DNA of 64,000 bases from Patescibacteria group bacterium (GCA_041650915.1 JBAZKE010000001.1:43694-107693), one strand, 5' to 3'. Positions 7,635-55,668 are shown, counted from the stretch's first letter. Notes: generated by a model not told the origin, from the sequence alone. A program made the numbers and translations.

Positions 7635-7764
7635 CCATAGCACTATATTCCTAAGTGGAAAACGTCTAAACATTTTAATGACGTTGTCGAACAATAAATT
7701 AGGTCACTAAGTTTTTTTATTTTTCGCGCTCTTATCCTAGCTGGGATTGAGAGAGGGTTTTTTT

Positions 7765-21247: not shown

Positions 21248-24200
21248 GTGGCGCTTTCAAAGCCATTCAAGAGAGCGGGTCAGTTCCTCGGGGGGAATAA
21301 GAATAAACAGGGAATTGACTTTAATGCACTGCCGGAGCTCCTCACCTTGGATCAGGTGAGTGAGATTCTTGGTGTCCATCCCAATACGCTCCGCAACTGG
21401 GATCGTTCCGGCAAGTTTGCCGCGCTCCGTGTCGGCCCGCGAAAAGACCGCCGCTACGAGAAAGAGGCTGTCTATAGGATGCACCTGGAGATGAAACCAG
21501 CGGTCCATGCAGCAGATCGGGAGGTCGATGGGCGCAAACCGGAGCCATCAGACAATAAGTACGTCATCCATCCCGGATTCTCGTGGAACAAGTTGCGGCT
21601 CTACTTCATGAGCCGCCGCTTTTCGATATTCGTATATTCGGTAGGGCTCGTCGCTTTCACCTTCGTGGTGATGCAGGTGACTTTTTTTGCGTACGTTTTC
21701 TTAGTCCGCGCCGAAGAGAAGCCTCCGCTCGTCGCCCGGCTCGCCCCATCGGCGGTGACCGGCTGGCAGGGTGCGGAAAAAGCGAAGACAATCGATGCAC
21801 TGGGCACGGCGCCGCTTGATGATTTCAGCATCTACAATTCAGCAGTTTTTTATAATGGTTCTGAGCCGATTGTTGTCGAGGAAGAGGAAGCCGCGGGCAC
21901 TGCCGAACCAGCGCAAGAGGCACCTGCCGAACCTGCGGTCGTGACGCCGCAGGACACCGAGCCCGAACCTGAAGAGCAAGCTCCTACGGAAGAGCCGCAA
22001 GCTCCTGCGGATGTTCCCGCAGAGGAGGCGGAAGAGCCGGTTGATGCATCCGCTATGCCTGCCGAAGAAGGCGAGGCGCCTGCTGTTGAGGAAGGGCTGC
22101 CTGCCGAAGCTGGCGTTGACGGGGGAGCGGCCACAGATGCCGCTGTTCCTGCAACGGAGGAGGCGGTGACCGATGAATCCGACGCGACGGTCGTGAAGGG
22201 CATGGTACTCGGCGAAGAGACGGATGCTGCAGACGAGCCGCTGTCGGAGCAGAATCCGGTGCTCGAGGCTCGGTCATTCGCGGTACCGGAAGCTATTCCC
22301 GCTGGCACGCAGATCAGTGATGCGCGGCTCCTGCTGTCTTTTGCCGCGGATACGTATCCGGACAATGAAGATGTGATTACCTTTTCCTACTCAGTGGACG
22401 GGAGCAGCTGGACCGTGCTCGATTCGCAGGGGCTCATTTCGGATATGAGTAACGGTACGCACGAGGGTTACTGGTCCTTCAGCATCCCCGAACTCCATGT
22501 CATCGATGAAATTGCAGATCTGATTGTACGGGTGGAATACCACGCAGTCGCACCGGTTGAAATGAGCACCGCGTACCTGGACGGCATTGAGCTCGACCTG
22601 ACGCTCGAGGAACCCGATGCGGTTGCCGCGGAGATTATCGAGAGCGTTGAGATAGAAAATGATGTGCTCGATACAGGCGAGGATCCCACGATCAACGTCC
22701 ATATCGAAGAAGAGTCGCCCCTCTCTTTCCTCGGCGCGTCATCACGGCAGCGTACGGTGAAAGACGTCCGGCTGCAGGATCCGAACGGGCGGGAGATTGA
22801 AGCGGTATACACGATTGCCGATGAACAGCAGGGCAGCGTAAAGACGGCAGCGTACACTTTTGATACGGGGGCATTTTCCAAGCCGGGCAAGTATACCGTT
22901 ACCTTGGAGGTTGAACAAAACGGTACGGTCGAGGAGGTTGAACAGGATTTCACCTGGGGCGTTTTGGCCATTAATCCCGATTACGCCATACAGAAGCTCG
23001 GGCAGGAAACGCAGTTTTCCATCGGCGTTCTGGACGATTCAGGCGATATCGTGTGCGACGCGGAAGTCACGCTGGAAATAGTAGATCCCGCCGGCCATGC
23101 CGTTACCCAGTCGACCGTTGACGGCAGGATTACCGTGAGTGACAGCTGCCTGACCAAAGGCGTGTACCAAGGCCCGGATTATTATTCGACCTACACGCCG
23201 CAGATGCCGGGCACGTACCAGCTGCACCTTACCGCAACGCACTACAACGGCACCCGCACCCTGGACAGCGAGTTTGCGGTCGAGGCGAATCCGCGCTTTA
23301 CCGTAAAGCGCACCGGGCCGACCCGCATCTTCCCGTACGTGTACCAGCCGATGCTTCTGGAAGTAACGGCATATGAAGATTTTACCGGCGAGATAACGGA
23401 GATCGTGCCGGGCGTATTTGAAATTGAGGTGCACAATGACGGCGCGATCCGGCCGTTTGACCAGGGAGGGCATATCGACCACCAGATCGTTTGGAAAGCT
23501 TCGTTGAAGGCCGGAGAATCAGCCACGTTCGGGTATTCGTTCAAAACGCCGGAAGAAAGCCCGGCACTGTATATGGCTGGTCCGGCGGCTGTGGGTACCG
23601 TGTGGGACGAAGGCCGGCAGTGGCAGATGGCGATTGACGCGACGTATGTATATCTGCTTTCATCATCAAACAGCGCTCCGGCCGGCTGGTCGTACGTGGA
23701 CACGTACAACAGCAAGTATGTCCGGGGAGCGTCTAGCTTCAGCGGAACGGGCGGCGGCGCTGCAACCCATACGCATACATACAGCGAATCAGTAACTGAT
23801 TCGAGCGTCAATACGGCTGGAATTGTATGCTCACGGCGATGTTTAAGCGTAGCGGGTTTGGGCCATACCCATACGTCAACCGGCAGCACGATAGGGCCTG
23901 AAAACAATGATCCGGCGCATTATACGTACCGGCTCTGGAAGTACGATACAGCTGACGCAACGCCCATGACGATCCCCCAGAATGCGTTTATCTTTTGGAA
24001 AGATAATAGCGCGGATCCATCATCGCCGTGGACCCGTTTTTCCAGCGGCGATGACCGCATGGTCAAGCTTGCGGATAGCCACACCACGGGCGGTTCGACT
24101 ACCCATAAGCATACCATCACCTGGGGCAGCCTCAATGCGACTACGGGCACAAATATTGAAGGTATTCTTGGTGACATATACACCATGACGTCGGCAACTC

Positions 24201-48200: not shown

Positions 48201-50383
48201 CCGAGAACTCTACGGTCACGTTTGACGGCACGAGCGGCACGGCGGATCTGATAACCGACCCTGCTTGCACAGACTGCAATCTTGATACGCTTGTTGTCAA
48301 TGACGGCGGAGGCGGGTTATTGACCGTTGAGGTTGAAGACGCGCTTGATGCAGCACACGTCACGATAACGAGCGGCACGCTTGATGCGGTCGCGCTGGAG
48401 AGCAATGCCATCAACGTTTCCGGGAATTGGGTCAACGATGACACGTTTGAAGCGCGAAATGGCACGGTGACGTTTGCAGCAACGGACGGGGATAACAGGA
48501 TCGAGAGCGGCATATCGCCTTTTTACAATGTTGATTTTAACGGAGCGGACGGCGCATGGACCTTGTATGAGCCGCTGGACGTCAACGGCACGTTTGACCT
48601 GACGCAAGGCACGTTTGTCCAGGGAACGGATTATAATCTCAACGTTGCCGGTGATTTCACGCTTGCGAATGGCACGACGTTTACCAAAGACACTGGCACC
48701 GGTCTTGTTATTTTCGACGGCGACCTGACATTTACGGACAGCAATGGGACCAAACAGGATATCGGAAGCGTAGAAATCGGAATGTCGCCTGATACTACGG
48801 AACTCGCGTCTGATATGTCAGCGACCACGCTTAATGTCAATAATAATGATATCCTGAATACCAATGGATATGACCTGAATATCGGCACGGGCGGGGTTAC
48901 TATTAAAAATGGCGGCGTTATCAACGCTCTTGATGACGTTGAGACGGATGAAACGATGATCAATACTGAGGGTGACTTTGAGATTAGTTCGGGTGGCGAC
49001 TTTAATTACGACCAGTCAACGATAATTTTTGACGCAGGATCAGGCACTGATGACCTTATTACCGACGGATCGGGCGATAACTATGCGGTGTACAATCTGC
49101 AGTTAAATGATGCCGGTGGCAGCTTGACTGTTGAGGTTGAGGATGATGTTGTTATCAAGGGCAATGTTACGGTTACTGCCGGCACGCTTGATGTTAAGAC
49201 GGAGAATAATGCCATTACCGTCGGCGGCAGCTGGACTAACGCAGACACCTTTACTGCGCGCGGCGGTACGGTAACATTTGATGGCGCTTCCGGCAGCGCT
49301 GGCACGTTTGACATTGATTCTACCGGTGCGACAACCGATGACTTTTACCACCTGGCTTTCAACGACGCTGGTGACGGCGATACGTTCCAGCTCGAATCAG
49401 CACTCGACGTAAACGGTAATCTCACCATCACCGGAGGCACGCTGGATACCAAGTCAGGGGAGGATAATGGCATTACGGCAGCAGGCAATTGGACCAATGA
49501 TGATACGTTTACAGCAAATAGCGGGACGGTAACGCTTGACGGCACGGGGCAGCAGGCGCTCTCCGGGCAGATGACGGGCGTATCAGACCGGTTTTACGAC
49601 CTCACGGTCACAAACACCGGCGTATCGAATCCCGACGTTATCTTCGCCGCTTCTGCCGAAACAGCGCATACGTTTACCGCGGGTACGGCAGGATCACAGG
49701 TGCAGTTCGACGACGCCGGGACGTATACGTTCCAGAATATCGATCTCGACGGCCAGGACCCCGCGACGCGCATTGTCCTGACGAGCGATTCCGCAGGCAC
49801 CCAGTGGGATATTAACGTCGCTGGCACGAGGAGCGTGTACAGCACCGATGTGCAGGACTCGAACGCGTGCGGCCAGCCGCCTGATATCAATGCCACACAC
49901 ATATCGAATAAGGATTCAGGCAATACGGACTGTTGGGACTTCACGGCAATTACCTTCACGATCAGCAGCAATGCGATCGACCTTGGCACGCTTTCAACCG
50001 GCTCTGTCAGTACGACGAGCCATACCGTCAGGACGGTCACGAGCGCAGATAGCGGCTACACGACGCTCGTCTACGACGACGGCAACCTCAGGAAGGGTTC
50101 CGACGATATCAACGACGTGGCTGACGGTGCCGTGACGGCAGGTTCGGAAGAGTACGGCCTCTCGACCACGGACAGCAGCCAGGACATTGCCCAGGATGCG
50201 GCCTGCGGCAGCGCTCCGTACACCGCATCCGCACTCACCGCGACCCAGCAGTCAGTCGCAGGAGCTGCCTCCGGTCCGGTGGATGAAACGATCACGGTCT
50301 GCTATGCAGCCTCGATCGACGTGAATACGATTTCGGGATCGTACGTTCATACCGTCACGTATATAACGGTAGGCCAGTTTTAA
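21248..50383 (+). CDS. giant (up to 9,711 aa) membrane-anchored, Thr/Gly/Asn/Asp-rich repetitive surface fibre / adhesin-like protein
   Basis: Single uninterrupted 29.1-kb ORF. Start is uncertain: GTG 21248, ATG 21479 (preceded by AAAGAGG) or ATG 21608. Parts in order: in-frame HTH (aa ~28-78), long hydrophobic anchor (aa ~125-152), acidic PE-rich linker, Ig-like domains, HxH tail-collar-like repeats, beta-helix-like GGT/NGT repeat arrays organised into ~8 super-repeats, and a C-terminal ~140-aa domain shared with the next gene. Confidence 0.9.
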   Translation: MALSKPFKRAGQFLGGNKNKQGIDFNALPELLTLDQVSEILGVHPNTLRNWDRSGKFAALRVGPRKDRRYEKEAVYRMHLEMKPAVHAADREVDGRKPEPSDNKYVIHPGFSWNKLRLYFMSRRFSIFVYSVGLVAFTFVVMQVTFFAYVFLVRAEEKPPLVARLAPSAVTGWQGAEKAKTIDALGTAPLDDFSIYNSAVFYNGSEPIVVEEEEAAGTAEPAQEAPAEPAVVTPQDTEPEPEEQAPTEEPQAPADVPAEEAEEPVDASAMPAEEGEAPAVEEGLPAEAGVDGGAATDAAVPATEEAVTDESDATVVKGMVLGEETDAADEPLSEQNPVLEARSFAVPEAIPAGTQISDARLLLSFAADTYPDNEDVITFSYSVDGSSWTVLDSQGLISDMSNGTHEGYWSFSIPELHVIDEIADLIVRVEYHAVAPVEMSTAYLDGIELDLTLEEPDAVAAEIIESVEIENDVLDTGEDPTINVHIEEESPLSFLGASSRQRTVKDVRLQDPNGREIEAVYTIADEQQGSVKTAAYTFDTGAFSKPGKYTVTLEVEQNGTVEEVEQDFTWGVLAINPDYAIQKLGQETQFSIGVLDDSGDIVCDAEVTLEIVDPAGHAVTQSTVDGRITVSDSCLTKGVYQGPDYYSTYTPQMPGTYQLHLTATHYNGTRTLDSEFAVEANPRFTVKRTGPTRIFPYVYQPMLLEVTAYEDFTGEITEIVPGVFEIEVHNDGAIRPFDQGGHIDHQIVWKASLKAGESATFGYSFKTPEESPALYMAGPAAVGTVWDEGRQWQMAIDATYVYLLSSSNSAPAGWSYVDTYNSKYVRGASSFSGTGGGAATHTHTYSESVTDSSVNTAGIVCSRRCLSVAGLGHTHTSTGSTIGPENNDPAHYTYRLWKYDTADATPMTIPQNAFIFWKDNSADPSSPWTRFSSGDDRMVKLADSHTTGGSTTHKHTITWGSLNATTGTNIEGILGDIYTMTSATHTHTAPTSSYTSEETLLPEYVTLDIWQQPDATPQAIVTGTVAMFDGTLPTGWTAISNGSPYQNRLVRGSTTAGSQAGSATHGHDDTEGTTGGASAQVKPGEGLDVLTAAENHTHGIRLADFSSGDQTPPYVDFVLAECTTCAITTITAGGIAYQENESTPIDGTSDNKTITLLVNGANTACGGGACTDTIDDDTGAWSISNITSSSGDIITVYLDDETEEATTVFVSDDTTQSNVDLYQNAVVVRHDTGASITNANLLTGDGGDDDIKYSVTGGALSVDTGFELHVWAGDTYDPGGAVTTQGTGGDVHVDDNATMYIDTIDSRITNNIMIDSGAALTVQVNSQVDGGAAGGVTVAGTLNASGGTFTVGDGTDEVVYVDSGTVNVDGGILTIKDDLYNNSAGGTEDINISSGTVNVGDDFRVESTADVDVTGGTVNVTGMLDVNGGTFDTSGSSDVNVTEILDQDGGTVTFGGTSTVDFGGVANAVNDGALNQTGGTVTFGNSTDEDLYANAGATITLSGGTTEIKDDFFLPSVTGSATVSNTVNMTAGSNETIDLDGGTLTVYEGADINCDYRLDVRAASIVDLNGGSLDTGNYWLIYDGTLNLDGGDHNIGTSGYLYFLPNATSITFNQTGGQITTYRLFVGNGAGTMYTPTVTGGTINIGTAAGTKDIYFTEAGDYKFYNVTIEENAVFNTSSTNSLKLAGSFTINNGKTFGANAEAIQIEGDNAGSPTGGFINEGTFTYGTSTVTMLNGEIKGSPDVMLTWSSFYNLNIGDATTSNTIDVGGSNNFWVQNAFAITSGDALSIGSGLYAGHSGPTFTLDGTVSGDGTLAFDSASPGPGTGGTLSANVRYDTTAGNIAAATFDARTYGGDVDIYLGELVIGAKSAIAGAGTLAIGGGLTLTDESAEGLSLDMNTNDPTTTVAGSVTVCATCTLSAPSTVSDTAFIVNGSWANSGTFTANGGQVTLDGSATQTLSGTMSGASSFANLKIRDASARTVDFEAQAITTGTYTIENDTNATTVQYENVADSAPFTFADISWGQAGTNGITFAGESGSSEWHLKVTDASQAVSYVSVSWSDASVTDGLEIAASDGTNTDGNNNTNWDFGFTISGTSTSFGTVKVAVNTTVQTDSAVISGGTWQITADADPISGDVITAYIDGVDDSLEAVGVTKYDGTGTISGMVLNGYEVWFGSTSDTPSLTLTDLENWDYDNDEDVFFSVASSTLEMNGDSAHSLNVLQIMDNATLTLSTGQTLNVTELFVRSDVTDGHLTMSGSPIINVKELFNNAGDYNASTETVNMANTMIGYITAAGASDSDIYNLNISPTSGLLTVSLNSALVVNNALTVTAGTFAVDENLNVNGAENALTVSGGTLSHTAGTLTVGNSTNEDLYITSGVVTTSGGNLVVTDDIRHAGGTVNINDGSNVDVTGQYTNDLAGSPILNLNGGSMDCQSHILLDRGTVNLNGGVHRAGVAVTDGIIEMNRNSTKSEHFYFNMTGGELHGRAIVIYDNKTLHTDTVSGGQLWVDNISEITATEEFYQWNTDSPTFWSLVLNEDDARINSTSQITDLNGDLIINSSMGLYQQGREIKVAGNWTHNGTTYSHGNGTVHMDGVDSTGSINGTTASTFYNLYLEDNTSLSNGNVTVEYVLLLLGGIDFSIGSGRTATVTSAGGMTGLTGSTVSGDGTLIFQAPTLTGPAPAIDSLLRMDAVDTDQSIESGPTRNFGSTVEFYNSGASSRTITIGSGADQTFNFYGDATSTVTGGGTLSVRQDTYNPIVNIVGDFTIGASSTYIASATGALNLSGSYTNTGAFTHSSGTVTLNGTALQTLSGTMTGASSFNSLTITNAYGSVSGCDTLFSPGVSFGTSATIAGTYTITTAGVNVRYNSGSTYTVNNINWQGGAGDEIIFRNSNLTSGTWLLAVSGTQTNVSYVNAARSDASSGDVIDASNGTNTDCDNNTNWDFYAGILVTGTLGFSPAAGTVKVAVDGDVQTDGYDVTGGSPWEVYTDAELAGDETVTVFIDGAETADESTAITGYDGSGDITGMVLNQHVLTAGSADNHTLVVDDFSTYWNTDDEDVMHGIFLGMETMTLYVDNSQYTDERLHIVSGTTVRLTSNSGDLENLNTFNITIDGTLDITGTATAQIDVYGNWDNNGAFNSNTSYTIFRATSGSFTIDSTGASASAFYRLTLGGVSGSATFTLESPLVVNNNLMINYGTLDTKSGENNSITVGGTWTNYDTFTANTGSVTFTGTGSINGDHDTTFYDLTIGDGTDGTMTVNGTDDPTVTHNIDIDAGDILSIGSDRTVTYTYDANSFTLDGTISGAGRLVYKSSDAFPATGTISTIVRFDATDVIWQNTGGRTYGNTVEIYHNSDALPKLIYLAGSGATVINGDLLFMTGASASLDMTVSNTNNYDVDIAGSLSVSKSGSGDITFDAGTAAYTVGDDVNFTNAAVTLEAGSLVEMTGAEDGTGTLTSAGTTLQDVTLSGGTITLADATHTISGSLDMTGAAVTAGTSTVLMNGAVASLYGGGNALNNLTLSSDSTTTLYSDIDIDGVLDITASDTLDIYVGIFATLTHYAELTFNGTISGIGGYLVYQSSTQFPAAGGTFGSMLNVRFDANYVNMVIPGRNYGTGIFELYNTGATNKTIYLGTGTGQTFSQTEEVNIVRTGAGSLLVDADFYDPTVTFGYMTIGAGTTYLSANSHTFTCFYDCDNQGTFTHNDGTVAVGTSGMNLAGDWTGSSALYNLTTDKNLDFDGAVTVANTFTIDNGSNTVDVEFEPGATYTFANIVWGQAGTNAVTMHGETSSAWNLKVTDEYSSQQVSYVTVSYSNACVSGGQNIDATDGTNNNNGNNSCWDFSDSMDISGTADGNAGELVKLAVNGVRTTEVGNIITGAPNTWTIANVGTINSGDVVTVWIENTIGNISDTDESSGITKYDGSGDVTGMALDTHVLTVGSADNPSFVRDDFLLYYNDDDEDIMHGKDETPDCKDGICPTDLNSDIDNVYSDDLFRVLSGATVTLSADADDYYDVLDAHDVTNEGTIVTTTTGLTPKLQISGSWNNTVAATFTSSLEQFTFDSSSAGETITTGGDPVYSLFFMGTGSWSNADALTVNNGLYVQNTGTFNVTGNDVTVKGASGMHISDGTVAISSGIVTVGDSTDEDLILDGGTLNASGGTLIVQDDLITTAAGNAEDINVTGGVLTVNGSLDINDGTVDFGPGASGAIDVNVSDCMHQTAGAVTVGTGSYAVDVDIDNGEFTSACTSLTHGYEITGGTLTIDTNADVAITDAYYFQTGGTFNLDGGSIAMAGPAGYSFEFSGGTFNLDGGTVDADDDKDYYVNLSDTGPVTFNMYSGDIYTSAFYVQNNYTTTTLNPALGGTIHISGPESGGSKFYQYSDDSPHFYNLSIEKGIVGYPVSFQSGGQNETILDGDFTILNADDYFRPWGQAIAIKGDYTNNGTCYSCNSSTFTFDGTAGQALSGNLNGTSMLDAVIIENSGGTVDIDNYLRANSLTIDNSGGTVDIEWESDADGTNYHEFADIVWGQAGANAITFTKETSANSQWYLKVTDTSQQVSYVAVADSNACVSGGQTIMADDGTSVDNDNNDCWDFGLVIISGTAPSYIDGTTIKVAVDDEEQAGKTGSVTSEAWTIEDVLVPDGAIVTVWVDGAGEITESTAVTEHIGDGDITGMVLNINVITLGSTSDAATLTANNLAQWQNGDNEDVMHSVLSDIGGGQTMYSDYSSEYTDDTFRILTGTTLTINSGTGEPTWEDALIVDNLILDGSLTMSGGYSPQVEIWGDWDNNGDFNTDGSETVQFRAAETGHTIDHTGSSDSDIQQLTFNGSGGRWTVLHPSTWVINGDMTMSNGIADIATNMRVDGGDVTGNGVVNAFAGSFEVTGAGNFGGDSAWVFNDLTFSGNTYTTTAAGSGSITVGNVLTIGSGHALNAGSKTWILSDTGTPLIIAGTLTPSSSTFRYTGAGATTVFDASYYNLEVIPGADSVTHTLSSDLLSGVISVANNMVIGGSHLACTVSGALYMTNLDVGNNVTINIGTAFVAPSAAASFTVGGSWSNSDTFTHSSGTVTFDANTTGKTIQSNSNNWNNVTFNNASGGWSFSDTTTLAGDLTVTAGTLSGTVDIDVQGGDLKGDGTVTMTAGTVNLINDGTIGTSSGSNDWTFYDLNLGQTGCAANTTTTANAGTGAIIITNTFTYDACSCGEECARYHRVHPGARTWRLTGTGTPLESGIINVGNIGTSVFQFTGTGSAVAVAGYYFYDLELIPGSATDYSFSAPTLYAIGHDLTINVNAAGNFDPGSAYVEMGGATGTLDVNGADIQELRTDLGTSNAITVASDAMISYRFVIFDAGDVLSVSSGATVTHTGATANILGGTISGDGLLTFTNTSTGPSTGGTVTADVRFDATDGDITSSTFDTRTYGGDLELYSAHSSGRTITPAAGTLTVGGNLNTTSTTSTLAAAFNTNNPTTLIGTIDNALTGDVSICATCTLSAPGSLTLYGDYQNSGTFTHNNGTVTLGAPGIVQAQAMYGAMTGASAFYNLTVENDFEANGPSFVNDSEVSNTYTITTPAVLVYYDTGTTHTYNNVNWNGQAAGSRIRLVGTDTWNLEVSGTQSVSYVDASYSNACGGDVIDADNGTNNNGGNNSCWDFIQGVEIDGIAYAENESTPLGIGRDVTLLVNGEENSCSFTPCTGSTDGVGGYAIADVDVLSGDVVTVYLDDASEEATMVYISNGTAQTNIDLYQNAVIARADTGSITNANLSTGDGGDDDIKYAVAGNNATFDSGFELHVWTGDTYDPGGQIITQGAGGDLHVDDSALAYVDTASSAIAGSVSIDTGGTVTMQSGTWTIAGDMTVTGTFNGTGDTVVNGGDMTGTGSVSLTGGSVTMAAGGSIDLGGTDTFSTLIINNGDATTTVVGSLNISGGLEVSAGDTLANSTGTMKLNTSTATLALAGTISGSGTLVYQSGVAFPTGGTLSMNVIFDPHLTSQSMSARTYGGDVKINDIAGNPSSNRTVTMLAGSYTIIGQLWMVEDTMRIITLDAATNDPTVQINGDLTGSGTSSNLTLHMGAGTWTVGDDVNLTHMDVDVETGGELELTGSTDSILSASATDIFYDLTMSGSDVEFGPVGEGWSAIAVSHDLSLTGTLDAKLATVQMVGAGGSIIGGGNTLYKLKIDPDPDGTVTLTTSDLTISNSISTPLEVTDSGDILSIESGRVLTVTGATTTEISGVGSITGDGTLRFDHNSGGPGTTLGTLGVAVRYDATLGDIAPETFDARTYGGDVEVYAGTGLIERVVTAPSSGTFAFEKALTTTCSSCNLLTLGFDGVTDPTVTIDGALTIGATTGLSAPSSVDFTLNGGYTNSGSFYDNSGTIVLGGSAIQTLDGTMTGVSDFNNLTITNASAAGIVFAKAATISGTYTITTADVKVTYLAGAAYTVTDINWDGQDAGTRIEFVSSTPDTQWNLNVSGTQTDVSYVNVTDSNACAGDEIVANNGTNYNGGNNDCWLFGIHISGTSNTTGTVKAAINTSLEPDSDLIAEGTWDIETSTVPVVNDVITVFIDEAEESGESSAVTRYDGSGSLTGVVLDANVLSIGSDNSIYVRLDDFVYTRSLDEDLMFDLSTGECSSRTLTIDAVGQYTDETLSILGGSQLYLLSYFNDGGPCNRYDTVNTHNIDISGYLSETGDRESTINVSGSWANSGTSTSGIGGTQGGFESGNSVVNFTAPSGTETINSSAAISGGGLRAFDDIVFNDSSGSATYLLKSDLDANHDITITGGTLDAESGVNHDIYVGGVWNNDDTFEARWGKVIFDGAGTFMLYAGSSWFYDLEFNNVGGLWDFDEDAVTAGNDVVVTVGILETEVDITIKGGDLTGDGTVTFNGGTLTMEQTGTIGTASGSNNWTLYNVTYGLGGQCTLDYTTTANGGAGTITVAGQMQGSACSCGGECFKVHRLDPGARTWIFSGTGLSGAADKIPLVDSTFINNGGTSTARFTATTGPGYVVQVSDNDYYNLEMLPAESEDYEWSSDTGIYGIYHDLTINSNAAANFDEKQAVLRLYGTDQTIDANGADLYDVGTWTDGVQAVSIASDVTITSRFLELYSGNTITIADGATMTVSGAQTNIIADGAVLTSVGTGMLRFLPGTTGPGTTGTLSANVRYDATDGDIASGTIDARTYGNRVEVYSGSSSADRTVTIASGTYTLSGASSHLHLLANGDNNVTLAGATNNPTVTIGGNVDFAGTGGGSEIITSGTGTWTVSGNVDFTGGTYTATSGNTLIMNGTGTPSITSASNSLYNFQTSGTGTITPQDNLTAANDITLGNGTTVSSAHDITANGGDLTTTGGTGTGVLTHTAGTVSISGTGNVGGNSAWTVQNLTFSQAVCADYTTTATGTGTITVNGTLLTDDCTSGETEYHKLAAGSKTWILTGTTPFTNDGGLDGGTSLFRFTTAGPATIPLGNVGGSTGYYTLELKPSGSSPTYTFAAGADFNINNNLVIGDGTNSVTVSGTANNPTLDIAGSVSCTAGASTNTVATGTGTWHVATNADLSECDSWTATSGHTLDMDGAGQITAAGKTLYNFQSSGMGVVSYSAMDVNGTFTVATGSNFEQADEDNINVAGNFTIQASSTFLAAEGAGMLILDGDLTFTDSTVGLQDLGDVQVGTSPDTTNLASDMKANSLTVATGDFFYTNGYDLDLGTGGLTVDGTFDAADDVETDETLITTNGDVRFSAPATFGQDQSTIEFDGSSGTDVLLTSAKPIYNLVIDGGANLLVELGSALDADGSITINVGELDVTAAPYAITLGGSWINADTFTARTGTVTIDGSSAVGTFDINSTGATAASFYNLILNDAGGGDTFELESALDVDNDLTITGGTLDTKNGSNWGISVGGDWTNADIFTARAGIVTFNATDTGHTINSGSSQFFSVVFDGASGSWSPLTNNITITGTLTMTNGTFDTSAGTANVTVRSHVQCGATCGTINMASTNTFTVQALFTATINFGTNVAVATDWTFYNLTLHSTSSGTIRFNGTGTGETNVLNNLSVTGTGFDTTVDVNTNDRIIDANNVSLSADAVFQASNSAAFTVSGNWSNSGTFTSNSGTVTFDGADSSTQAFTGDTTFGSFTATTADNSAGRTLQFAGSSTTAVSGTWTVTGASGKVLTLQSSDTNNWTINPTAASVTYVSVSRSTNAGASFCATYSNDGGNNVNWAISTGAQCQVISGTIYSDISSAEYDCTTPYTVKLRVNGSGTYSTECTNTPTMGYFEFNNVASTSGDVITLYLDNEEYEGTTVMVTDGTIQTDVDIYWDNTIVRADTGSITNANLATGDDGDDDVKYNVATNNVTYDSSFGLYVWDGDTYDPGGTIALSNADVWVGPSATLYFDTATNTPGNNMSVMTGATVHVDAATTFANGIDVMGSVIGTGDLTLTIGSMVSSNGIGTVTMTGGTVTLGGGGTFQSSSADWTFHDLYLAQPPACSVPATCTEITCAKVTNASGTGGVTISGTVTSDICSPPMPSENTYAHQLDAAVGNPKVWTFNGDSGDASPYVPITSVYMENVETHESTFAFTSIDSNGVSMPLNSMDFYNLSINPASATDYNFEAPAYRLWNDLFIHPNANVISGSTVMAFACDDCEINAGGTTFGDVEVYYSDKNVSVTTTGTDFSIAGRLWMATGISYTTDLVIGEGRTVTMENGSTVNLGTTSTVGGAGTWEFLPGSSGPDDVGTVNSVVRYNASSDNIANTTFDPRTYGNNVEIYSESSAGDRSVAFAAGTYTLSGANADFTIESAGTSNLSLANSAGTVNMAIGGDLGFTKGSTGTPSVTTGAGTWAVSGDVDLSNGTFTASSGHTLELDAAADGTGLITSAGNTLMNFLASGSDLVGSTDALDADGTFGVSETADFAQAADNNLNVAGNFTIASGATFNKASGSGTLIFDSNTDFTDSSSPLQDLGSVTISGLVDLLSNMKEESLAISGTLRQDGYDLDVGGGITVQSGANLWPVAGAGGDPAINLEGSLTIEDAAVFNSENSTVTFDGTSGTADLITDPACTDCNLDTLVVNDGGGGLLTVEVEDALDAAHVTITSGTLDAVALESNAINVSGNWVNDDTFEARNGTVTFAATDGDNRIESGISPFYNVDFNGADGAWTLYEPLDVNGTFDLTQGTFVQGTDYNLNVAGDFTLANGTTFTKDTGTGLVIFDGDLTFTDSNGTKQDIGSVEIGMSPDTTELASDMSATTLNVNNNDILNTNGYDLNIGTGGVTIKNGGVINALDDVETDETMINTEGDFEISSGGDFNYDQSTIIFDAGSGTDDLITDGSGDNYAVYNLQLNDAGGSLTVEVEDDVVIKGNVTVTAGTLDVKTENNAITVGGSWTNADTFTARGGTVTFDGASGSAGTFDIDSTGATTDDFYHLAFNDAGDGDTFQLESALDVNGNLTITGGTLDTKSGEDNGITAAGNWTNDDTFTANSGTVTLDGTGQQALSGQMTGVSDRFYDLTVTNTGVSNPDVIFAASAETAHTFTAGTAGSQVQFDDAGTYTFQNIDLDGQDPATRIVLTSDSAGTQWDINVAGTRSVYSTDVQDSNACGQPPDINATHISNKDSGNTDCWDFTAITFTISSNAIDLGTLSTGSVSTTSHTVRTVTSADSGYTTLVYDDGNLRKGSDDINDVADGAVTAGSEEYGLSTTDSSQDIAQDAACGSAPYTASALTATQQSVAGAASGPVDETITVCYAASIDVNTISGSYVHTVTYITVGQF
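27290..49945 (+). repeat. protein-level tandem super-repeats (~2.3-3.1 kb period, ~8 copies) within giant CDS
   Basis: Each unit ends with ...NI.W.GQ.AG..I.F......W.L.VSGTQ..VSYV.V..SNAC...I.A.DGTN..GNN.CWDF. The W/C-WDF codons are at ~27.50, 30.07, 32.74, 34.99, 38.14, 40.70, 45.76 and 49.94 kb. Divergent at nucleotide level. Confidence 0.6.
50051..50317 (+). repeat. 267-nt perfect direct repeat, copy 1 (3' end of giant CDS)
   Basis: Identical nucleotide string to 51244..51510 (offset 1193 nt). Antisense ORFs 50071..50295 and 51264..51488 translate to identical 74-aa peptides, confirming identity. Confidence 0.9.
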
Positions 50384-50538: not shown

Positions 50539-51576
50539 ATGAAAGTACTAAAAAACACTAGTGTGGTGGTGTTGATGGCGGCATTTATCGCTGTCATGCT
50601 CTTTCCGGTCCAGGCAGCATACGCGGGTACCCTCACCACACCGCGCGATTACCTGAACAGGGTTAAGGAGAGTTTAACCTCCGGTGTGCAGCACGAGGTG
50701 TTCTTCACTACCGAGGGGGCAGTTTCAGGAGGAGCAGGGAACAACGAGATTACGCTCGTCTTCCCGGATGCGGATGACGGCGGCTGGTGCGCCACCGCAG
50801 CAGCCGACATGACGGTCACCGGCATTACGGATCCGACAGGCGGTTCCGAGAGCGCAACGTCGCTCCCCGGCACACTCGTCGGTACGTGTACGCAGGGTGC
50901 AGGCGCTTCGAGCTACGACACCTTCACAATCACCGGGGTCAATGATCTCAGCTCGGCTACGAAGTACGGCGTCCGTATCGCGGATGGCACAACGGCAGAG
51001 CTCGGTACGCCGGCTGCGTCGACGACGGGTCTCATCACCATTACCACAAACAACGGCTCAACTGACGTTGACTCTGCATTTACGAGCGTCGATATCATCA
51101 GCGATGACCAGGTGGCTGTTTCCGCCGATGTCCCATCGAGCATTACTTTCACGCTCAGCGATACCACGATCGACCTTGGCACGCTCTCAACGGGCGCGGT
51201 CAGCACTTCGTCACATACCGTCCAGACCGTCACCAATGCGTCGAGCGGCTACACGACGCTCGTCTACGACGACGGCAACCTCAGGAAGGGTTCCGACGAT
51301 ATCAACGACGTGGCTGACGGTGCCGTGACGGCAGGTTCGGAAGAGTACGGCCTCTCGACCACGGACAGCAGCCAGGACATTGCCCAGGATGCGGCCTGCG
51401 GCAGCGCTCCGTACACCGCATCCGCACTCACCGCGACCCAGCAGTCAGTCGCAGGAGCTGCCTCCGGTCCGGTGGATGAAACGATCACGGTCTGCTATGC
51501 AGCCTCGATCAGCGCAAGCACGGTAGCGGGCGCATACGCGCATACGGTTACATACGTAACGGTCGGGTTATTCTAA
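50539..51576 (+). CDS. secreted 345-aa protein sharing the C-terminal ~140-aa domain of the giant protein (possible divergent WxL-like cell-surface domain)
   Basis: N-terminal signal peptide (MKVLKNTSVVVLMAAFIAVMLFPVQAAYAG). The C-terminal 140 aa are near-identical to the giant protein's C-terminus (IDLGTLSTGAVSTSSHTV...TVTYVTVGLF). Confidence 0.8.
   Translation: MKVLKNTSVVVLMAAFIAVMLFPVQAAYAGTLTTPRDYLNRVKESLTSGVQHEVFFTTEGAVSGGAGNNEITLVFPDADDGGWCATAAADMTVTGITDPTGGSESATSLPGTLVGTCTQGAGASSYDTFTITGVNDLSSATKYGVRIADGTTAELGTPAASTTGLITITTNNGSTDVDSAFTSVDIISDDQVAVSADVPSSITFTLSDTTIDLGTLSTGAVSTSSHTVQTVTNASSGYTTLVYDDGNLRKGSDDINDVADGAVTAGSEEYGLSTTDSSQDIAQDAACGSAPYTASALTATQQSVAGAASGPVDETITVCYAASISASTVAGAYAHTVTYVTVGLF
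51244..51510 (+). repeat. 267-nt perfect direct repeat, copy 2 (3' part of the 345-aa gene)
   Basis: See copy 1. Confidence 0.9.
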
Positions 51577-51610
51577 TAACAGTTACTACCTCCTTCGCGG
51601 GCAATTTCAT

Positions 51611-52558
51611 ATGGAGGGAGGGCAGGTAATAACAAATAATTTTCATACGACTATGAATTGGAGGACAACAATAACCCTATCGGCAGCCGTGCTCGTTGCG
51701 GCATTCATCGTGCCAATAGGCGCCGATGCGCTGACGCTTCAGCCGACGTTTCAGGAAATAACCCTGACGCCCGGCAAAACGACAACGACAGCCGTTGAGC
51801 TCGAGAACGAAACGCAGGAATCTATCGAGCTCACCTCAGAGGTAGCAACATTCTCTGCAAAGGATGAGACGGGCGAACCCGAGTTCAACTTTGATGCTCC
51901 CGAGACGGGGATTGTGGCGTGGACAACTGCGGAATCGGGCCCCTTCACGCTCGAGGCAGGCGCCACGGAAACGGTGATCGTCACGTTCGAGACGCCTCTC
52001 GATGCGGAACCAGGCGGCCACTACGTTGCGGTCTTCTTCAACCAACTCCTCGAGGCTGAGGAGCCCGGGCAGGTCAATATAGAGTCGAAGCTCGGCACCC
52101 TCTTCCTTGCAACGGTGACCGGTACGTACGCAGAGAAGGGCTCAATTGCAGAATTCAAAACCGCGGGTACGGCAACGAGCTATTCCGAGGGACCGGTGGA
52201 CTTTACGTTCCGGTACCAAAATACAGGCGACGTTCACCTCAAGCCGACTGGCACTATTACCGTCAAGAATATGCTCGGGGGCACAGTCGCTACGATACCA
52301 GTCAATCGTGAGGGCGGCGCAACGCTTCCCGGCAGCATTCGGGAGTATGACGTTGCGAGCTGGGCAGACCTCGGGAACGGATTCGGCAAGTATACGGTCA
52401 CGATTGACCTCTCCGCAGGGACAGTTTCGAACAGCATGACGCTGAGCTTCTGGGTGTTCACGACGGTCGGTACGGTTATTGCCGCCGCCATCGCCCTCGT
52501 TATCATTGTGCTCATCATTGTGCTGCTCCGGGCTACGACAAAGAAGAAGCCAGATTAG
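51611..52558 (+). CDS. tail-anchored cell-surface protein, paralog A (signal peptide + beta-rich ectodomain + C-terminal TM and basic tail)
   Basis: 315-aa ORF. The start is more likely ATG 51653 (MNWRTTITLSAAVLVAAFIVPIGADA signal peptide). Paralogous to the next gene (shared ...FSAKDETGEPEFNFDA...EPGGHYVAVFF...). C-terminal hydrophobic helix then KKKPD. Confidence 0.8.
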   Translation: MEGGQVITNNFHTTMNWRTTITLSAAVLVAAFIVPIGADALTLQPTFQEITLTPGKTTTTAVELENETQESIELTSEVATFSAKDETGEPEFNFDAPETGIVAWTTAESGPFTLEAGATETVIVTFETPLDAEPGGHYVAVFFNQLLEAEEPGQVNIESKLGTLFLATVTGTYAEKGSIAEFKTAGTATSYSEGPVDFTFRYQNTGDVHLKPTGTITVKNMLGGTVATIPVNREGGATLPGSIREYDVASWADLGNGFGKYTVTIDLSAGTVSNSMTLSFWVFTTVGTVIAAAIALVIIVLIIVLLRATTKKKPD

Positions 52559-52612
52559 GCACGCATTAACAATGGCGGTCGGCAACCGTATGGTCGCCTG
52601 ATCGCCGAGCCT

Positions 52613-53608
52613 ATGAAAAAGAAGCTACTATACATACTAGCATTCACCCTCGCGGTACTGTTTACCGCCAGTACGTTTCCCGCGCAGCGTGCGGACGCAA
52701 TCACCCTCATCCCGCCGATTCTTGAATTTGGCCTCATCCCCGGCGAGCCATCGAAGATAGCGATCAAGCTCTTCAATGAATCATCAAGTACCGTAGAGCT
52801 GTATACGGAAGCGCACAACTTCAGTGCCAAGGATGATACCGGACAGCCGCAGTTTGATTTCGAGAGCGATGCGGATGGCATAAGCTCCTGGATCGACATG
52901 GAGGAGGGCCCAATCATCATCGAGCCGAACGGCCGGTATGAGGTGCCGGTGACGATCAATCCGCCGTCAGAGGCGGATCCAGGCGGGCACTACGCAGCCG
53001 TTTTTTTCTCGACGACTCCACCCGAAGAGGGCCAGGTCAGGATTGCCTCGAAAGTCGGGACGCTCATCCTGGCAAAGGTTGCCGGTGACGTAGAGGAGGA
53101 CGGTTCGATCGTAGAGTTCGACGTTGTCGACGGCAAACGGTTTTTCAATCGCCTCCCCGCTGCATTTGAAGCGCGGTTTGAAAATACCGGCAATGTGCAC
53201 CTCCGGCCGGCTGGGACGATCGTTATCGAAAATTTTTTCGGACAGCAGACCGATGAGGTCGATTTCAATCCGAGCGGCGGTGCAACGCTTCCGGATACGA
53301 CGCGCCGGTATGAAGCAATATGGGAAAAGGGGCAGGTCGGCGATACTGCAGGCAACGTGTGGACGAGTTTTTGGAAAGAATACGTAAACGAGAAGAATAA
53401 TTTTGCGATCGGCAGGTATACGGCGGCGATCTCTATTGAAGCGGGCACTGACAACGGCGTTACGGATGCCGCTTCAGTCTCGTTTTGGATCTTTCCGTGG
53501 CGTGTCGTACTCGTTTGGGCGGTAGCCGCTGCACTCGCCGTTATACTGCTCATCTACTTCCTCAGGCGCTACAACGCTTGGATCGTCAAGAAAGCCCGGG
53601 GAAAATAA
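52613..53608 (+). CDS. tail-anchored cell-surface protein, paralog B
   Basis: 331 aa. Signal peptide MKKKLLYILAFTLAVLFTASTFPAQRADA. Shares FSAKDDTGQPQFDFES...DPGGHYAAVFF with paralog A. C-terminal TM then RRYNAWIVKKARGK. Confidence 0.8.
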   Translation: MKKKLLYILAFTLAVLFTASTFPAQRADAITLIPPILEFGLIPGEPSKIAIKLFNESSSTVELYTEAHNFSAKDDTGQPQFDFESDADGISSWIDMEEGPIIIEPNGRYEVPVTINPPSEADPGGHYAAVFFSTTPPEEGQVRIASKVGTLILAKVAGDVEEDGSIVEFDVVDGKRFFNRLPAAFEARFENTGNVHLRPAGTIVIENFFGQQTDEVDFNPSGGATLPDTTRRYEAIWEKGQVGDTAGNVWTSFWKEYVNEKNNFAIGRYTAAISIEAGTDNGVTDAASVSFWIFPWRVVLVWAVAAALAVILLIYFLRRYNAWIVKKARGK

Positions 53609-53621
53609 TACCCATACGAAC

Positions 53622-54521
53622 GTGCGTCGTTTTTTGAAACTGCGGACAGTATTAATCTGGGGTATCCCGTTGATCGTGCTGATCGCGGGATATTCTGTTG
53701 TGTGCGCGCAAGTTTCACGCCAGGTTACGGTAACGGCGACTGTTCCGGAGCAGCCGCCCCTCGAGCCGCCCGATACGACCGTTCAGTTCAGCGGCATAGC
53801 GTACCCATCCTCTACGGTAACGATTACGCAGGATTCGGTGCCGATATCCATCATTACCGCCACAGCCCAGGCGGGTTTTCAGGTATCCATTATTGTCGAT
53901 CCGGGCACCCATACGTTTACAGTGTACGGCATCGACGTGGACGGGGTTCAGGGGCGCGTATCCAGCTTTACGCTGCTCCTTTCGGAGGGCAGCACGACTA
54001 CCATCAGCGGAATTTTTCTCGGCCCGACGATTACGACTGACCAGACGACCATTACTTCGGGAGAGACCGTGACGCTCTCCGGTACGACGGCACCGGACAG
54101 CGAGGTGAACGTTACCCTGACTTCGCCTGCCGTCGGTGCGGCAGCCGGAGAGGCGAAGATTGCCGTGCACATTGCGAGCGCAGACGGTAACGGCCGCTGG
54201 CTGCAGCTCTTCAATGCTGATGACCTCGTCGAGGGCAGCCACTCCGCAAAGGCGCAGGCGACCGATCCGGTTACGAGTTCGGTTTCCGAGTTTAGCAATG
54301 AGGTTGTTTTTGAGGTGGTCGCAGCTGAAGAGCCTGATGCGTGTGCCGGCATGGCCCCCGGCGATATCAACTGTGACGGTTCAGTCAACTTAGTCGACTT
54401 CAGCATCCTGCTCTTCTACTGGAACGCGGCAAATCCGGCAAATCCGAGAGCTGATATCAATAGTGACGGTACCGTCGATATAATCGACTTCAGCATTATG
54501 CTCTACTATTGGACGGGATAA
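53622..54521 (+). CDS. secreted protein with Ig-like repeats and C-terminal dockerin (two Ca-binding EF-hand-like repeats)
   Basis: 299 aa from a GTG start. Signal peptide with a ...VVCAQ site. The C-terminus has two dockerin repeats, DINCDGSVNLVDFSILLFYW and DINSDGTVDIIDFSIMLYYW, with D/N at loop positions 1, 3, 5 and 12. Confidence 0.7.
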   Translation: MRRFLKLRTVLIWGIPLIVLIAGYSVVCAQVSRQVTVTATVPEQPPLEPPDTTVQFSGIAYPSSTVTITQDSVPISIITATAQAGFQVSIIVDPGTHTFTVYGIDVDGVQGRVSSFTLLLSEGSTTTISGIFLGPTITTDQTTITSGETVTLSGTTAPDSEVNVTLTSPAVGAAAGEAKIAVHIASADGNGRWLQLFNADDLVEGSHSAKAQATDPVTSSVSEFSNEVVFEVVAAEEPDACAGMAPGDINCDGSVNLVDFSILLFYWNAANPANPRADINSDGTVDIIDFSIMLYYWTG

Positions 54522-54525
54522 AACC

Positions 54526-55668
54526 ATGCATTTTTTACGGCATACAATTTTTCTATCAGTTTCAGTGCTGCTCGGAGCGGTTCTATTCGGGCAGTCTGCT
54601 GACGCTGCCGTGATTTCGTTCGATCCGTCGGGCGGGGAGCTTTCGCTGAATGAGGAATTTCTGGTAACCCTGCACCTCAACAGCGAACAGGAGGTTATCA
54701 ATGCAGTCGACATTACGCTCACGTATCCTGCTTCCGCACTCGAGGTCATTGATGTTTCTCGGGGAGGTTCTTTCCTGACGCTGTGGGTCGAGGATCCCGT
54801 CGTCGACGATACGGCGGGTACGATAACGTTTGCGGGGGGCATTCCGAATGGCAGCCTCGTCGCGGATGGCGTTATTGCGACTGTGATTTTCAGGTCGAAT
54901 GCGCCGGGAGGGGTAGAGATCGGCGTTGATACGGAAGCGACCAAGGTTTTGCTCAACGATGGGAGGGGAACCCAAGCGGCGCTGTCGGCGGAGCCAAGCG
55001 TTTTTACCATATCGTCGTTGTCGTTTGTGGCGATTACCTCACCGACGCATCCGGATGAGAATGCCTGGTACCGCGAGAATGATTTTACTGCAGAGTGGGC
55101 AACCACTGCCGGCGCTGAATACAGCTATACGGTGAGCGCCCGATCCGATACGGTGCCCGATGACAGCAGGGACATTACCGACGGCAGCGCTACCTTTTTC
55201 AGTTTGCCCGACGGCATCCACTATTTTATTCTGAAGGAGCGGCTTCCCCACAAGGATTGGCGCATCATCGGCAAGCGGCGCGTCATGGTTGATTCGACTC
55301 CGCCGCTGCCGTTCACCGCGGAAATCGTAAAGGAGCGCACGCTGTACGGCGGCAAGTCGATCGTCACCTTCACTGCCCAGGACTTCACATCCGGCATCGC
55401 ACGGTATGATATTGCTGAGAATGATGCGATAACGCAGGACGTAACCTCGCCGTACATACTCAAGGACCAGTCACTCAGCCAGGCGGTTATCCTCTGGGCC
55501 GTTGACCGCGCGGGCAATACAACAGAGTTCTCATTTGGCGGGCACGGCAGCACGCCGGGGGGAAGCTCTGGCGATCCTATTGATATTCTCGTATACGTAT
55601 TTGCCGGCTGCATGTTTCTGCTCCTCGTGCTGGTCGCGGTACGATGGCGAATAAAAAAGAAAGCGTAA
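54526..55668 (+). CDS. cohesin-domain protein with Ig/FN3-like second domain and C-terminal TM anchor
   Basis: 380 aa. Signal peptide. N-terminal ~140-aa cohesin-like module (VINAVDITLTYPASALEVIDVSRG...GTITFAGG...DGVIATVIFRS). Middle domain paralogous to the next protein. C-terminal hydrophobic helix + RIKKKA. Confidence 0.7.
   Translation: MHFLRHTIFLSVSVLLGAVLFGQSADAAVISFDPSGGELSLNEEFLVTLHLNSEQEVINAVDITLTYPASALEVIDVSRGGSFLTLWVEDPVVDDTAGTITFAGGIPNGSLVADGVIATVIFRSNAPGGVEIGVDTEATKVLLNDGRGTQAALSAEPSVFTISSLSFVAITSPTHPDENAWYRENDFTAEWATTAGAEYSYTVSARSDTVPDDSRDITDGSATFFSLPDGIHYFILKERLPHKDWRIIGKRRVMVDSTPPLPFTAEIVKERTLYGGKSIVTFTAQDFTSGIARYDIAENDAITQDVTSPYILKDQSLSQAVILWAVDRAGNTTEFSFGGHGSTPGGSSGDPIDILVYVFAGCMFLLLVLVAVRWRIKKKA

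Follow-up and report, generated by a model that had tools for sequence, protein, structure and literature searches.

The 64,000-nucleotide stretch of DNA analysed here (the window) originates from a Patescibacteria group bacterium (GCA_041650915.1 JBAZKE010000001.1:43694-107693). It harbors a cassette of seven genes, all located on the plus strand and separated by short gaps. The first gene (21248-50383) encodes a giant protein of 9,711 amino acids, proposed to be the distal tip or adhesive subunit of a fibre, and is followed by the open reading frames (ORFs) ORF-A to ORF-F. ORF-A (50539-51576) encodes a putative two-domain pilin of 345 amino acids. ORF-B (51611-52558, 315 amino acids) encodes a tail-anchored two-domain protein resembling WxL-interacting proteins (WxLIPs) and PapD, a proposed membrane-tethered pilus chaperone; translation probably begins at Met15 (51653), as P0001, the corresponding NCBI protein, comprises 301 amino acids. 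ORF-C (52613-53608, 331 amino acids) is its paralog and a second tail-anchored chaperone-like protein, recognized by the chaperone hidden Markov model (HMM) with E=4e-109. ORF-D (53622-54521, 299 amino acids) combines a signal peptide, a donor-like strand and immunoglobulin (Ig) domains with a type I dockerin, whereas ORF-E (54526-55668, 380 amino acids) carries a signal peptide, a cohesin, an Ig-like domain and a C-terminal transmembrane (TM) helix. The last gene of the cassette, ORF-F (55678-58188, 836 amino acids), codes for a signal peptide, a cohesin-like N-terminal region, internal TM segments and CarboxypepD_reg domains. We propose, with a probability of about 0.65, that this cassette encodes a divergent form of the Pam pilus in a Kerfeldbacteria-like host of the candidate phyla radiation (CPR). 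Pam pili belong to ultrasmall, monoderm CPR bacteria and are assembled by chaperone-assisted donor-strand exchange without an usher.

The C-terminal domain (CTD) is the feature which connects the giant protein with ORF-A. An earlier note, written from the sequence alone, had claimed that both proteins share this domain, and a BLASTP comparison bears this out: 126 of 146 residues are identical (86%, E=7e-79) in an ungapped alignment which reaches the last residue of both proteins, well above what chance would give. Here, residues 200-345 of ORF-A are the counterpart of residues 9566-9711 of the giant (49943-50380, plus strand). On the DNA level, the 3' ends of both genes contain a direct repeat of 300 nucleotides with 91% identity (49949-50248 and 51142-51441), including a perfect core of approximately 240 nucleotides by our own count, and this indicates a recent gene conversion between the giant and the pilin gene.

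The family assignment of the CTD comes from the NCBIfam model NF058581 (CPR_Pam_pilin_C), which matches ORF-A (E=2.2e-11, 44.1 bits) and the giant (E=2.3e-9, 37.5 bits) over the full model length. The same model matches 46 of the 54 ORF-A homologs, all of them from CPR bacteria, with a best E-value of 5e-20. Furthermore, an HMM of the CTD built here finds the domain of the giant with E=1e-53 and also matches the PamT equivalog as well as the pilin of a canonical pam operon. The Pam CTD family was defined in a 2026 preprint, in which PamA and PamB were described by cryo-electron microscopy (cryo-EM) as two-domain pilins in filaments of Ca. Mycosynbacter amalyticus (bioRxiv 10.64898/2026.03.03.709456). 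In these filaments the CTD accepts the linker strand of the neighbouring subunit, the linker thus being the donated strand (bioRxiv 10.64898/2026.03.03.709456). Judged from the profile matches, the shared CTD is a divergent Pam-pilin C-terminal domain, i.e. the donor-strand acceptor of CPR Pam pili.

A phmmer search with the CTD against 1.84 billion representatives matched 432 clusters. In all of the 150 best-listed representatives of these 432 clusters the domain extends to the very C-terminus, and these 150 proteins fall into three size classes of approximately 220, approximately 350 and 500 to more than 3,000 amino acids. In the giant and the pilin of one genome the CTDs evolve in a concerted manner, since the CTD of the giant is usually closer to that of its own pilin than to its orthologs elsewhere (identities of 86 vs. 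at most 70, 82 vs. at most 76, 66 vs. at most 46 and 57 vs. at most 42). This would be expected, if one donor strand has to fit into both grooves.

The domain plan of ORF-A is in line with this assignment. It comprises a signal peptide (residues 1-29), an N-terminal domain (NTD) with a beta-sandwich (30-185), a linker (186-201) and the CTD (202-345), and its only hydrophobic segment is N-terminal. AlphaFold2 (AF2) models were calculated as monomers for ORF-A and ORF-B. The ORF-A model, with a mean predicted local distance difference test score (pLDDT) of 91.9, displays two stretches of strands, residues 33-185 and 202-343, with the unstructured linker (186-201) between them, and thereby the plan of the two-domain Pam pilins with a beta-sandwich NTD, a single linker strand and a CTD. 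The interdomain linker ISDDQVAVSADVPSS (51094-51141, plus strand) is proposed as the donor strand based on the consensus DQVxVSATVxP of the ORF-A family, in which D190 is nearly invariant. The closest homologs of the ORF-A pilin are found in metagenome-assembled genomes (MAGs) of Kerfeldbacteria. Sequence searches of the PDB with ORF-A or ORF-B as single sequences, or with the pilin profile, returned nothing useful.

Fold searches using the whole ORF-A model resulted in many generic beta-sandwiches with low TM-scores, which would fit to a shared domain that is nothing but a generic Ig-like module whose resemblance arose by chance or composition. This explanation is effectively refuted by the 146 residues shared with 86% identity, by a domain position that is strictly C-terminal in each of the 150 best representatives of the 432 clusters, by the specific NCBIfam match and by the conserved synteny described below.

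The earlier note had further compared the strands of the CTD with those of the WxL domain. The strand sequences it quoted, ITFTLSDTTIDLGTLSTG and TVTYVTVGLF, are indeed present in the proteins; the relationship itself did not withstand the comparison of profiles. A WxL profile was built from 55 non-redundant sequences, taken from annotated plasmid clusters and 120 homologs. HHalign scored a CTD profile of 73 sequences against it with 13.4 (E=0.3), compared to 11.0 for the reversed control, and a larger CTD profile of 218 sequences with 15.3 (E=0.18). Unrelated controls in the same test reached similar values, namely 14.6 for the NTD, 13.5 for the cohesin, 16.0 for the chaperone and 20.3 for the dockerin protein. 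With E-values of 0.04-0.8 for the controls, the similarity between CTD and WxL profiles does not differ from that of the controls. None of the 54 members of the pilin family matched the Pfam WxL model PF13731 at E<=1, cross-searches between CTD and WxL HMMs peaked at 10.7 bits vs. 11.5 bits for a reversed model, and the CTD contains no W-x-L motifs. A greedy alignment of both domains is collinear and in register, but non-significant; in it, GY of the CTD coincides with GW(xL), the first WxL motif, and TY/TF with TW(xL), the second. This register is what the earlier note had picked up by eye; it is suggestive but not evidence. Thus, homology between the CTD and the WxL domain is not supported at the profile level.

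For the tail-anchored proteins the situation is different. As claimed before, ORF-B and ORF-C are paralogous signal-peptide proteins with a C-terminal TM anchor, sharing 39% identity over 288 residues (E=1e-63). Both contain hydrophobic segments at the N-terminus and at the C-terminus (278-312 in ORF-B, 289-320 in ORF-C), the latter followed by basic tails, and the AF2 model of ORF-B (pLDDT 91) displays a C-terminal helix at residues 285-310. Their suggested likeness to the DUF916/DUF3324 proteins of CscA type was confirmed by Pfam, HHalign, a PDB profile match and the fold. The Pfam family PF06030 (WxLIP_PGBD, i.e. DUF916) is matched by 38 of 53 members of the ORF-B family (ORF-B alone with E=0.022), whereas PF11797 (DUF3324) is not matched directly by the family. 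HHalign aligned the family with three 'DUF916 and DUF3324' proteins encoded on plasmids; the alignment extends across both domains (226 columns) and has a probability of 96% and E=2.9e-9, the reversed control giving E=0.0066. Moreover, the family profile matches the solved structure of EfmWxLIP1 from E. faecium (9i25_C/9i1y_A, E=1.6e-4).

The same structures (9i1y/9i25) are the best PDB fold matches of the ORF-B model in Foldseek (E=2e-10). They are followed, at almost the same closeness of fold, by the chaperones CfaA, CsuC, YadV, Caf1M, FimC and DraB of chaperone-usher systems with E-values of 1e-9 to 5e-7 and a TM-score (target) of approximately 0.5; RbmA is also among these next matches. 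At the sequence level, no PapD match of ORF-B was obtained in Pfam. By profile and by model, ORF-B and ORF-C are true relatives of CscA/WxLIP and share the PapD-like chaperone architecture.

A position for these proteins within a pilus system is provided by a canonical pam operon of Saccharimonadales (locus L004), which encodes a PamR-like protein (247 bits), a PamT equivalog (312 bits, above the cutoff) and a Pam pilin (175 bits). Directly after this pilin lies a gene for an ORF-B homolog (P0062, E=8e-33), and this protein reaches the gathering score of PF06030 with 27.3 bits. Judged from the operon position of P0062, ORF-B and ORF-C probably correspond to the slot of the Pam chaperones PamC and PamD. 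NCBIfam contains no model matching this chaperone family, the member of the canonical pam operon included.

The homology to WxLIP over both domains raises the main rival explanation, a static complex like that of the WxL/Csc systems, in which the CTDs of the giant and ORF-A are docked permanently and non-covalently on ORF-B and ORF-C and no polymer is formed. For WxLIP it was proposed that it binds and stabilizes WxL proteins at the surface (PMC10599100), and a stable complex of WxLIP with a long WxL protein has been crystallised (9i25). In addition, two clients and two paralogous partners are present in the window. We nevertheless consider such a permanent docking unlikely. The CTD lacks significant similarity to WxL and belongs to the family of Pam pilins, which build filaments by strand exchange. 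Several related loci (L008, L016-L019 and L022) possess a single chaperone gene alongside both a giant and a pilin, and a hold on the membrane-proximal C-terminus would need no separate cohesin-dockerin pair. Furthermore, the static complex leaves unexplained why a linker motif is common to the pilins and the N-terminus of the dockerin proteins, and why fusion proteins of both exist (see below). By analogy to pilus systems, ORF-B and ORF-C are more likely assembly chaperones than docking partners.

ORF-D starts, just past its signal peptide, with the donor-like strand RQVTVTATVPEQ (53718-53753, plus strand) and ends with a type I dockerin containing two Ca-binding repeats (54357-54500, plus strand), which scores 36.3 bits against a Dockerin_1 cutoff of 22.9. 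A Big_6 match of 23.5 bits in ORF-D stays below the Pfam cutoff of 27.6. The N-terminal strand resembles the pilin linker of the same locus. In the window the pilin linker reads DDQVAVSADVP and the N-terminus of the dockerin protein RQVTVTATVPE; the corresponding pairs are LDQVSVSATVP and QQVVVTATVPE in L006, DDSVAVSAQVD and RTVSVSATVPE in L007 and GDVTVTATVD and IDVSVSATVPS in L008. Of 12 dockerin proteins, 11 contain a single copy of the motif [VI]x[VI][ST][AG]x[VI], located at residues 32-51 directly behind the signal peptide, compared to a background rate of 0.36 per 1000 amino acids. In the canonical operon, the N-terminus of PamR (NINVGGTVP) likewise resembles the pilin linker (QIDVSATVD), and it is only this N-terminal strand region that ORF-D shares with a PamR (BLASTP, E=0.027).

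In L017 (12054-13385) and L022 (12196-13569) the dockerin protein itself consists of a pilin NTD, the linker, Ig domains and the dockerin, without a CTD. Further fusions of this type are P0149 and P0158. We regard these fusion proteins as natural intermediates; the domain order in L017 and L022 shows that the short forms of ORF-D type arose from pilins through loss of the acceptor domain. The evidence for the donor motif consists of the regular expression, the position statistics and these fusion proteins.

ORF-E contains a cohesin (54652-54909, plus strand) with 26.6 bits against a Pfam cutoff of 24.1, located between two hydrophobic segments (residues 3-30 and 350-376). In ORF-F, residues 5-352 are matched by the cohesin HMM (E=4e-55) and are homologous to the cohesin region of ORF-E, while its hydrophobic segments support internal TM regions. 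Thus, dockerin and cohesin above the Pfam thresholds are found on separate neighbouring proteins, ORF-D and ORF-E. By analogy, we propose that ORF-D both terminates and anchors the fibre, in the role that PamR has in the Pam pilus, and that ORF-E may be the membrane-anchored receptor for its dockerin. The earlier suggestion of a non-covalent docking of the fibre on a membrane-anchored partner is therefore probably right in spirit, yet it named the wrong partner, as the contact is more likely made by dockerin and cohesin than by ORF-B and ORF-C.

The giant protein is rich in T, G, S, D and N. Directly before its CTD, where the pilins carry the donor linker, it contains a Cys...Cys loop (ACGQPPDINATHISNKDSGNTDCWDF, 49868-49942, plus strand) without the donor motif. 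A loop of the disulfide type (AC-G-x-x-P-D-I-D ... N-x-C-W-D/N-F) is present at the same place in 17 related large proteins, and the motif C-x(19-22)-C-W precedes the CTD in most of the 18 large CTD proteins. This loop may cap or orient the acceptor domain. None of these 18 proteins contains the donor motif within the 50 residues before the CTD. At the N-terminus, residues 31-75 (21338-21472, plus strand) form an HTH_17/MerR-like helix-turn-helix (HTH) of the excisionase type (PF12728, 28.3 bits vs. a cutoff of 27), which is also carried by the giant of L006. Further downstream, at residues 124-155 approximately (21617-21712), lies the only hydrophobic segment of the protein, followed by a signal-peptidase-like site between VRA (at 155) and EE. 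This segment may attach the protein to the membrane a second time or act as a signal-anchor that is cleaved off; HTH and segment together could also represent a regulator tethered to the membrane. When both halves of the giant were scanned with Pfam, HTH_17 alone was matched and no adhesin domains were found; self-BLAST revealed no strong internal repeats.

The conservation of the cassette was followed in the neighbourhoods of ORF-B homologs and in 18 loci from GTDB species representatives, scanned with the HMMs built here. In 17 related loci, the pilin gene is immediately preceded by a large ORF ending in the same CTD, and the giants recorded reach 10,276 amino acids. The order of genes is a large or giant CTD protein, one or two pilins, one or two chaperones, the dockerin protein, the cohesin protein with its TM helix and a large membrane protein. 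It is kept in the window and in L006-L011, L013, L015, L017-L019, L022 and L026, and the same gene order is present in at least 15 species-level CPR genomes. A second group (L004, L021, L024 and L025) displays the canonical order chaperone, PamT-like protein, pilin and chaperone and has no cohesin or dockerin genes.

This conservation bears on a further explanation, according to which ORF-A alone builds a Pam pilus, the giant is an independent adhesin which acquired the CTD by gene conversion and is thereby folded or exported with the help of the same chaperones, and the cohesin-dockerin genes are an unrelated neighbouring module. The giant has its own N-terminal membrane segment, the near-identical repeat of 300 nucleotides reflects a recent gene conversion, and proteins with cohesins and dockerins are common in CPR genomes, all of which would fit to this. 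However, at least 15 species-level genomes keep the order of giant, pilin, chaperone, dockerin and cohesin. Moreover, the donor motif of the pilin recurs in the dockerin protein, in two genomes even together with the whole pilin NTD, and the giants consistently lack this motif, as expected of a terminal subunit. A pilus restricted to ORF-A is thus improbable.

The genomic surroundings are those of a chromosome. The upstream flank comprises the housekeeping genes metK, murE, rpoB, rpoC, ftsK, recA and plsX; on the minus strand downstream, translations read by eye resemble glutamate racemase, phosphoglycerate mutase and phosphomannomutase. An origin from a mobile element or phage was rejected since the flanking genes are housekeeping genes. 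A scan of the cassette for promoters and terminators gave counts equal to those of shuffled sequences, so that the support for an operon is limited to the short gaps between genes of the same strand.

From the homologies, domain architectures, gene order, motif distribution and concerted evolution of the CTDs observed here, and by analogy to the cryo-EM of Pam filaments and to chaperone-usher pili, a working model of the divergent Pam pilus can be drawn; its inferred elements are the exchange of strands, the order of the subunits, the function as chaperones and the pairing of dockerin with cohesin. All components would be exported by Sec. ORF-B and ORF-C, tethered to the membrane by their C-terminal helix, would cap the incomplete Ig-like CTD of newly exported subunits, like PapD-type chaperones and WxLIPs. 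The giant would be the first and distal subunit, the tip, and could only take this position because it has an acceptor CTD but no donor strand. Subsequently, the linker strand of ORF-A (DDQVAVSADVP) would enter the groove in the CTD of the preceding subunit while its own CTD is offered onward, forming the shaft, a role assigned to ORF-A since it has both donor and acceptor. ORF-D, with the same strand and a dockerin replacing the CTD, would stop the polymerisation and fasten the base to the cohesins of ORF-E and ORF-F; it is taken as the terminator since it offers a donor only, plus the dockerin.

Several observations weigh against this model. The scores of ORF-A and the giant, 44.1 and 37.5 bits, lie below the curated cutoff of NF058581 (55 bits). 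The models for PamT and PamR match no gene of the window: PamT (NF058579) yields a weak partial match via the shared CTD only (E=1e-3, 18.6 bits vs. a cutoff of 240) and PamR (NF058578) none at E<=1 in ORF-D, ORF-E and ORF-F. HHalign comparisons of the dockerin proteins with the pilins did not recover the short donor motif, and in L008, L012 and L026 the CTDs of giant and pilin show no concerted evolution. Also the N-terminus of the giant, with its HTH and hydrophobic segment, complicates a simple role as tip, since an uncleaved segment would leave it tethered to the membrane. The chaperone role of PamC and PamD is itself only predicted (bioRxiv 10.64898/2026.03.03.709456), and the solved WxLIP-WxL complex (9i25) demonstrates that a complex formed by this fold can be stable and possibly permanent.

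The Pam pilus comprises the pilins PamA, PamB, PamE and PamT, the tail-anchored predicted chaperones PamC and PamD and the anchor PamR. Compared to known systems, the cassette resembles the Pam pilus in its tail-anchored two-domain chaperone-like proteins, with an ORF-B homolog filling this slot in the canonical operon, in the absence of an usher, and in an anchor or terminator that starts with a pilin-like donor strand. It differs in CTD scores under the curated NCBIfam cutoffs and in the lack of PamT. There is no CTD-only protein of approximately 220 amino acids in the window; here, the 9,711-amino acid protein carries the tip-type CTD, an acceptor without a donor. It also lacks an RbmA-like, TM-anchored PamR, which is replaced by the dockerin-ended subunit and membrane cohesin proteins. 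The host belongs to a Kerfeldbacteria-like lineage, in contrast to the Saccharimonadia and Microgenomatia emphasised for Pam (bioRxiv 10.64898/2026.03.03.709456), and the preprint on the Pam pilus makes no mention of WxL, DUF916, dockerin, cohesin or giant proteins (bioRxiv 10.64898/2026.03.03.709456).

The WxL/Csc clusters of Bacillota consist of CscA, the WxLIP with DUF916, DUF3324 and a TM segment, the small WxL protein CscB, the large WxL protein CscC and the short LPXTG protein CscD. The parallel in layout which the earlier note had drawn does hold: one large and one small secreted protein have in common a domain that is strictly C-terminal, tail-anchored partners follow, and a short anchored protein is present. 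Here, ORF-B and ORF-C are the homologs of CscA/WxLIP by sequence, profile and fold. In contrast to Csc, the host is a CPR bacterium, and anchoring in the cassette would proceed via dockerin and cohesin and not via sortase and LPXTG, a motif absent from ORF-A to ORF-F as read. Moreover, the donor-like strand of the cassette is the interdomain linker, whereas the strand in Csc proteins is an N-terminal extension followed by a Pro-rich spacer.

Similarities to chaperone-usher pili (Pap/Fim, CFA/I, Csu and Caf1) are the chaperone fold of ORF-B, the tip-adhesin logic of FimH and PapG with an N-terminal adhesive part and a C-terminal pilin domain without a donor, and a terminator subunit which stops growth, as PapH does. 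In contrast, the cassette has neither an outer membrane nor an usher (no usher family was found among its proteins in Pfam and NCBIfam), its chaperones are tethered to the membrane, it uses an internal donor strand, the giant tip is approximately 30 times the size of FimH, and the base would be held by cohesin and dockerin. With the cellulosome it has in common the type I dockerin on ORF-D and the cohesin modules on the membrane-anchored ORF-E and ORF-F; however, glycoside hydrolases and a scaffoldin are missing and the bearer of the dockerin is a derivative of a pilus subunit. The cassette is thus neither a canonical Pam pilus, since PamT and PamR are absent and the scores stay below the cutoff, nor a WxL cluster, since there is no detectable WxL domain and no LPXTG protein. 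The architectural parallel with the WxL clusters is nonetheless substantive, as the WxLIP component and the overall logic are common to both.

Some observations were made beside these main lines. Short CTD-only relatives resembling PamT (P0156, P0162, P0163 and P0170-P0197) comprise about 215-235 amino acids, and their mature N-terminus contains repeated motifs of the type 'S-x-N-Y/F ... G-G', e.g., SSSTNFKLEAEFGIFGG ... STNYR. In L006 (16494-18300), L007 (20223-20933) and L008 (19864-20987), type IV pilus genes (PilM_2, N_methyl prepilin) or another very large protein with a T4SS_pilin domain adjoin the cassette, which suggests gene neighbourhoods for surface appendages in these CPR genomes. 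L027, from a MAG labelled Thermoleophilia (GCA_054606915.1), encodes a secreted protein of 182 amino acids with a match to the Pam CTD HMM (E=2e-9) and the donor-like start INVNVTVDD. It adjoins two tail-anchored chaperone homologs (E=2e-91 and 5e-13; region 6123-8203 and 12086-12919), and the contig also carries genes for sigma-70, Lgt, DsbD and UvrA. Provided that the binning is correct, the Pam system also occurs outside CPR, which disagrees with the survey in the preprint. L028, labelled Bathyarchaeia, contains a typical CPR-like pair of pilin and chaperone and may be a mis-binned contig.

A last observation concerns the Csc clusters themselves. In four of them, located on plasmids of Enterococcus and Lactiplantibacillus (L001 3128-5789, L003 4823-5806, L029 4778-5819 and L032 8019-9183), the mature N-terminal strand of the LPXTG protein CscD matches the strand of the small WxL protein CscB from its own cluster, as in the pairs NYDSNGVTAF / NYDSNGVITF and EVRSVETEGTIGFT / ETRQVTTNGNIEFT. 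For each CscD strand of the four clusters, the best of ten candidates was the one of the same cluster (shuffle p from <0.0005 to 0.02), and the N-terminal strand of the small WxL proteins is conserved across the 120 homologs. For CscD, no similarity beyond the anchor had been described (Siezen et al., 2006). The cluster-specific strands of CscB and CscD mirror the pilin linker and the N-terminus of ORF-D, so that donor-strand complementation may possibly operate in WxL clusters as well.

Since the Pam chaperones are WxLIP homologs, with P0062 reaching the threshold of PF06030, and the cassette displays the full Csc-like plan, with a proposed large tip and small shaft protein that have the C-terminal acceptor in common, a tail-anchored chaperone and a short anchored subunit starting with the donor strand, one may speculate that the Pam pili of CPR and the WxL/Csc clusters of Bacillota are two branches of one ancient monoderm, usher-less and chaperone-assisted donor-strand system. 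We regard this common origin as tentative and rather doubtful. If it were true, WxL proteins would by symmetry polymerise, or dock by strand exchange onto the LPXTG-anchored CscD, which is supported by the cluster-specific N-terminal strands of CscB and CscD; the fibre base of the cassette would be held by cohesin and dockerin, and its tip would be an adhesin of approximately 1 MDa with a cytoplasmic HTH at the other end.

According to the current view, CPR bacteria live attached to host cells, and little has been described of how this attachment works. Descriptions of the Pam pilus date from 2026 only and are confined to operons of the Saccharimonadia type. The cassette suggests that in another CPR lineage the strand-exchange machinery mounts a fibre protein of approximately 1 MDa, likely an adhesin for host contact, and that the base of a pilus may be fixed by a cohesin-dockerin pair instead of a transmembrane subunit. 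Furthermore, it suggests that the Pam 'chaperones' and the WxL-interacting proteins of enterococci, listeriae and lactobacilli are one family. WxL clusters have been linked to virulence and to colonisation of the gut, although little is understood of how they are assembled. Here, the kinship of chaperones and WxLIPs provides a mechanistic hypothesis, namely that WxL clusters may be assembled by donor-strand complementation and exchange.

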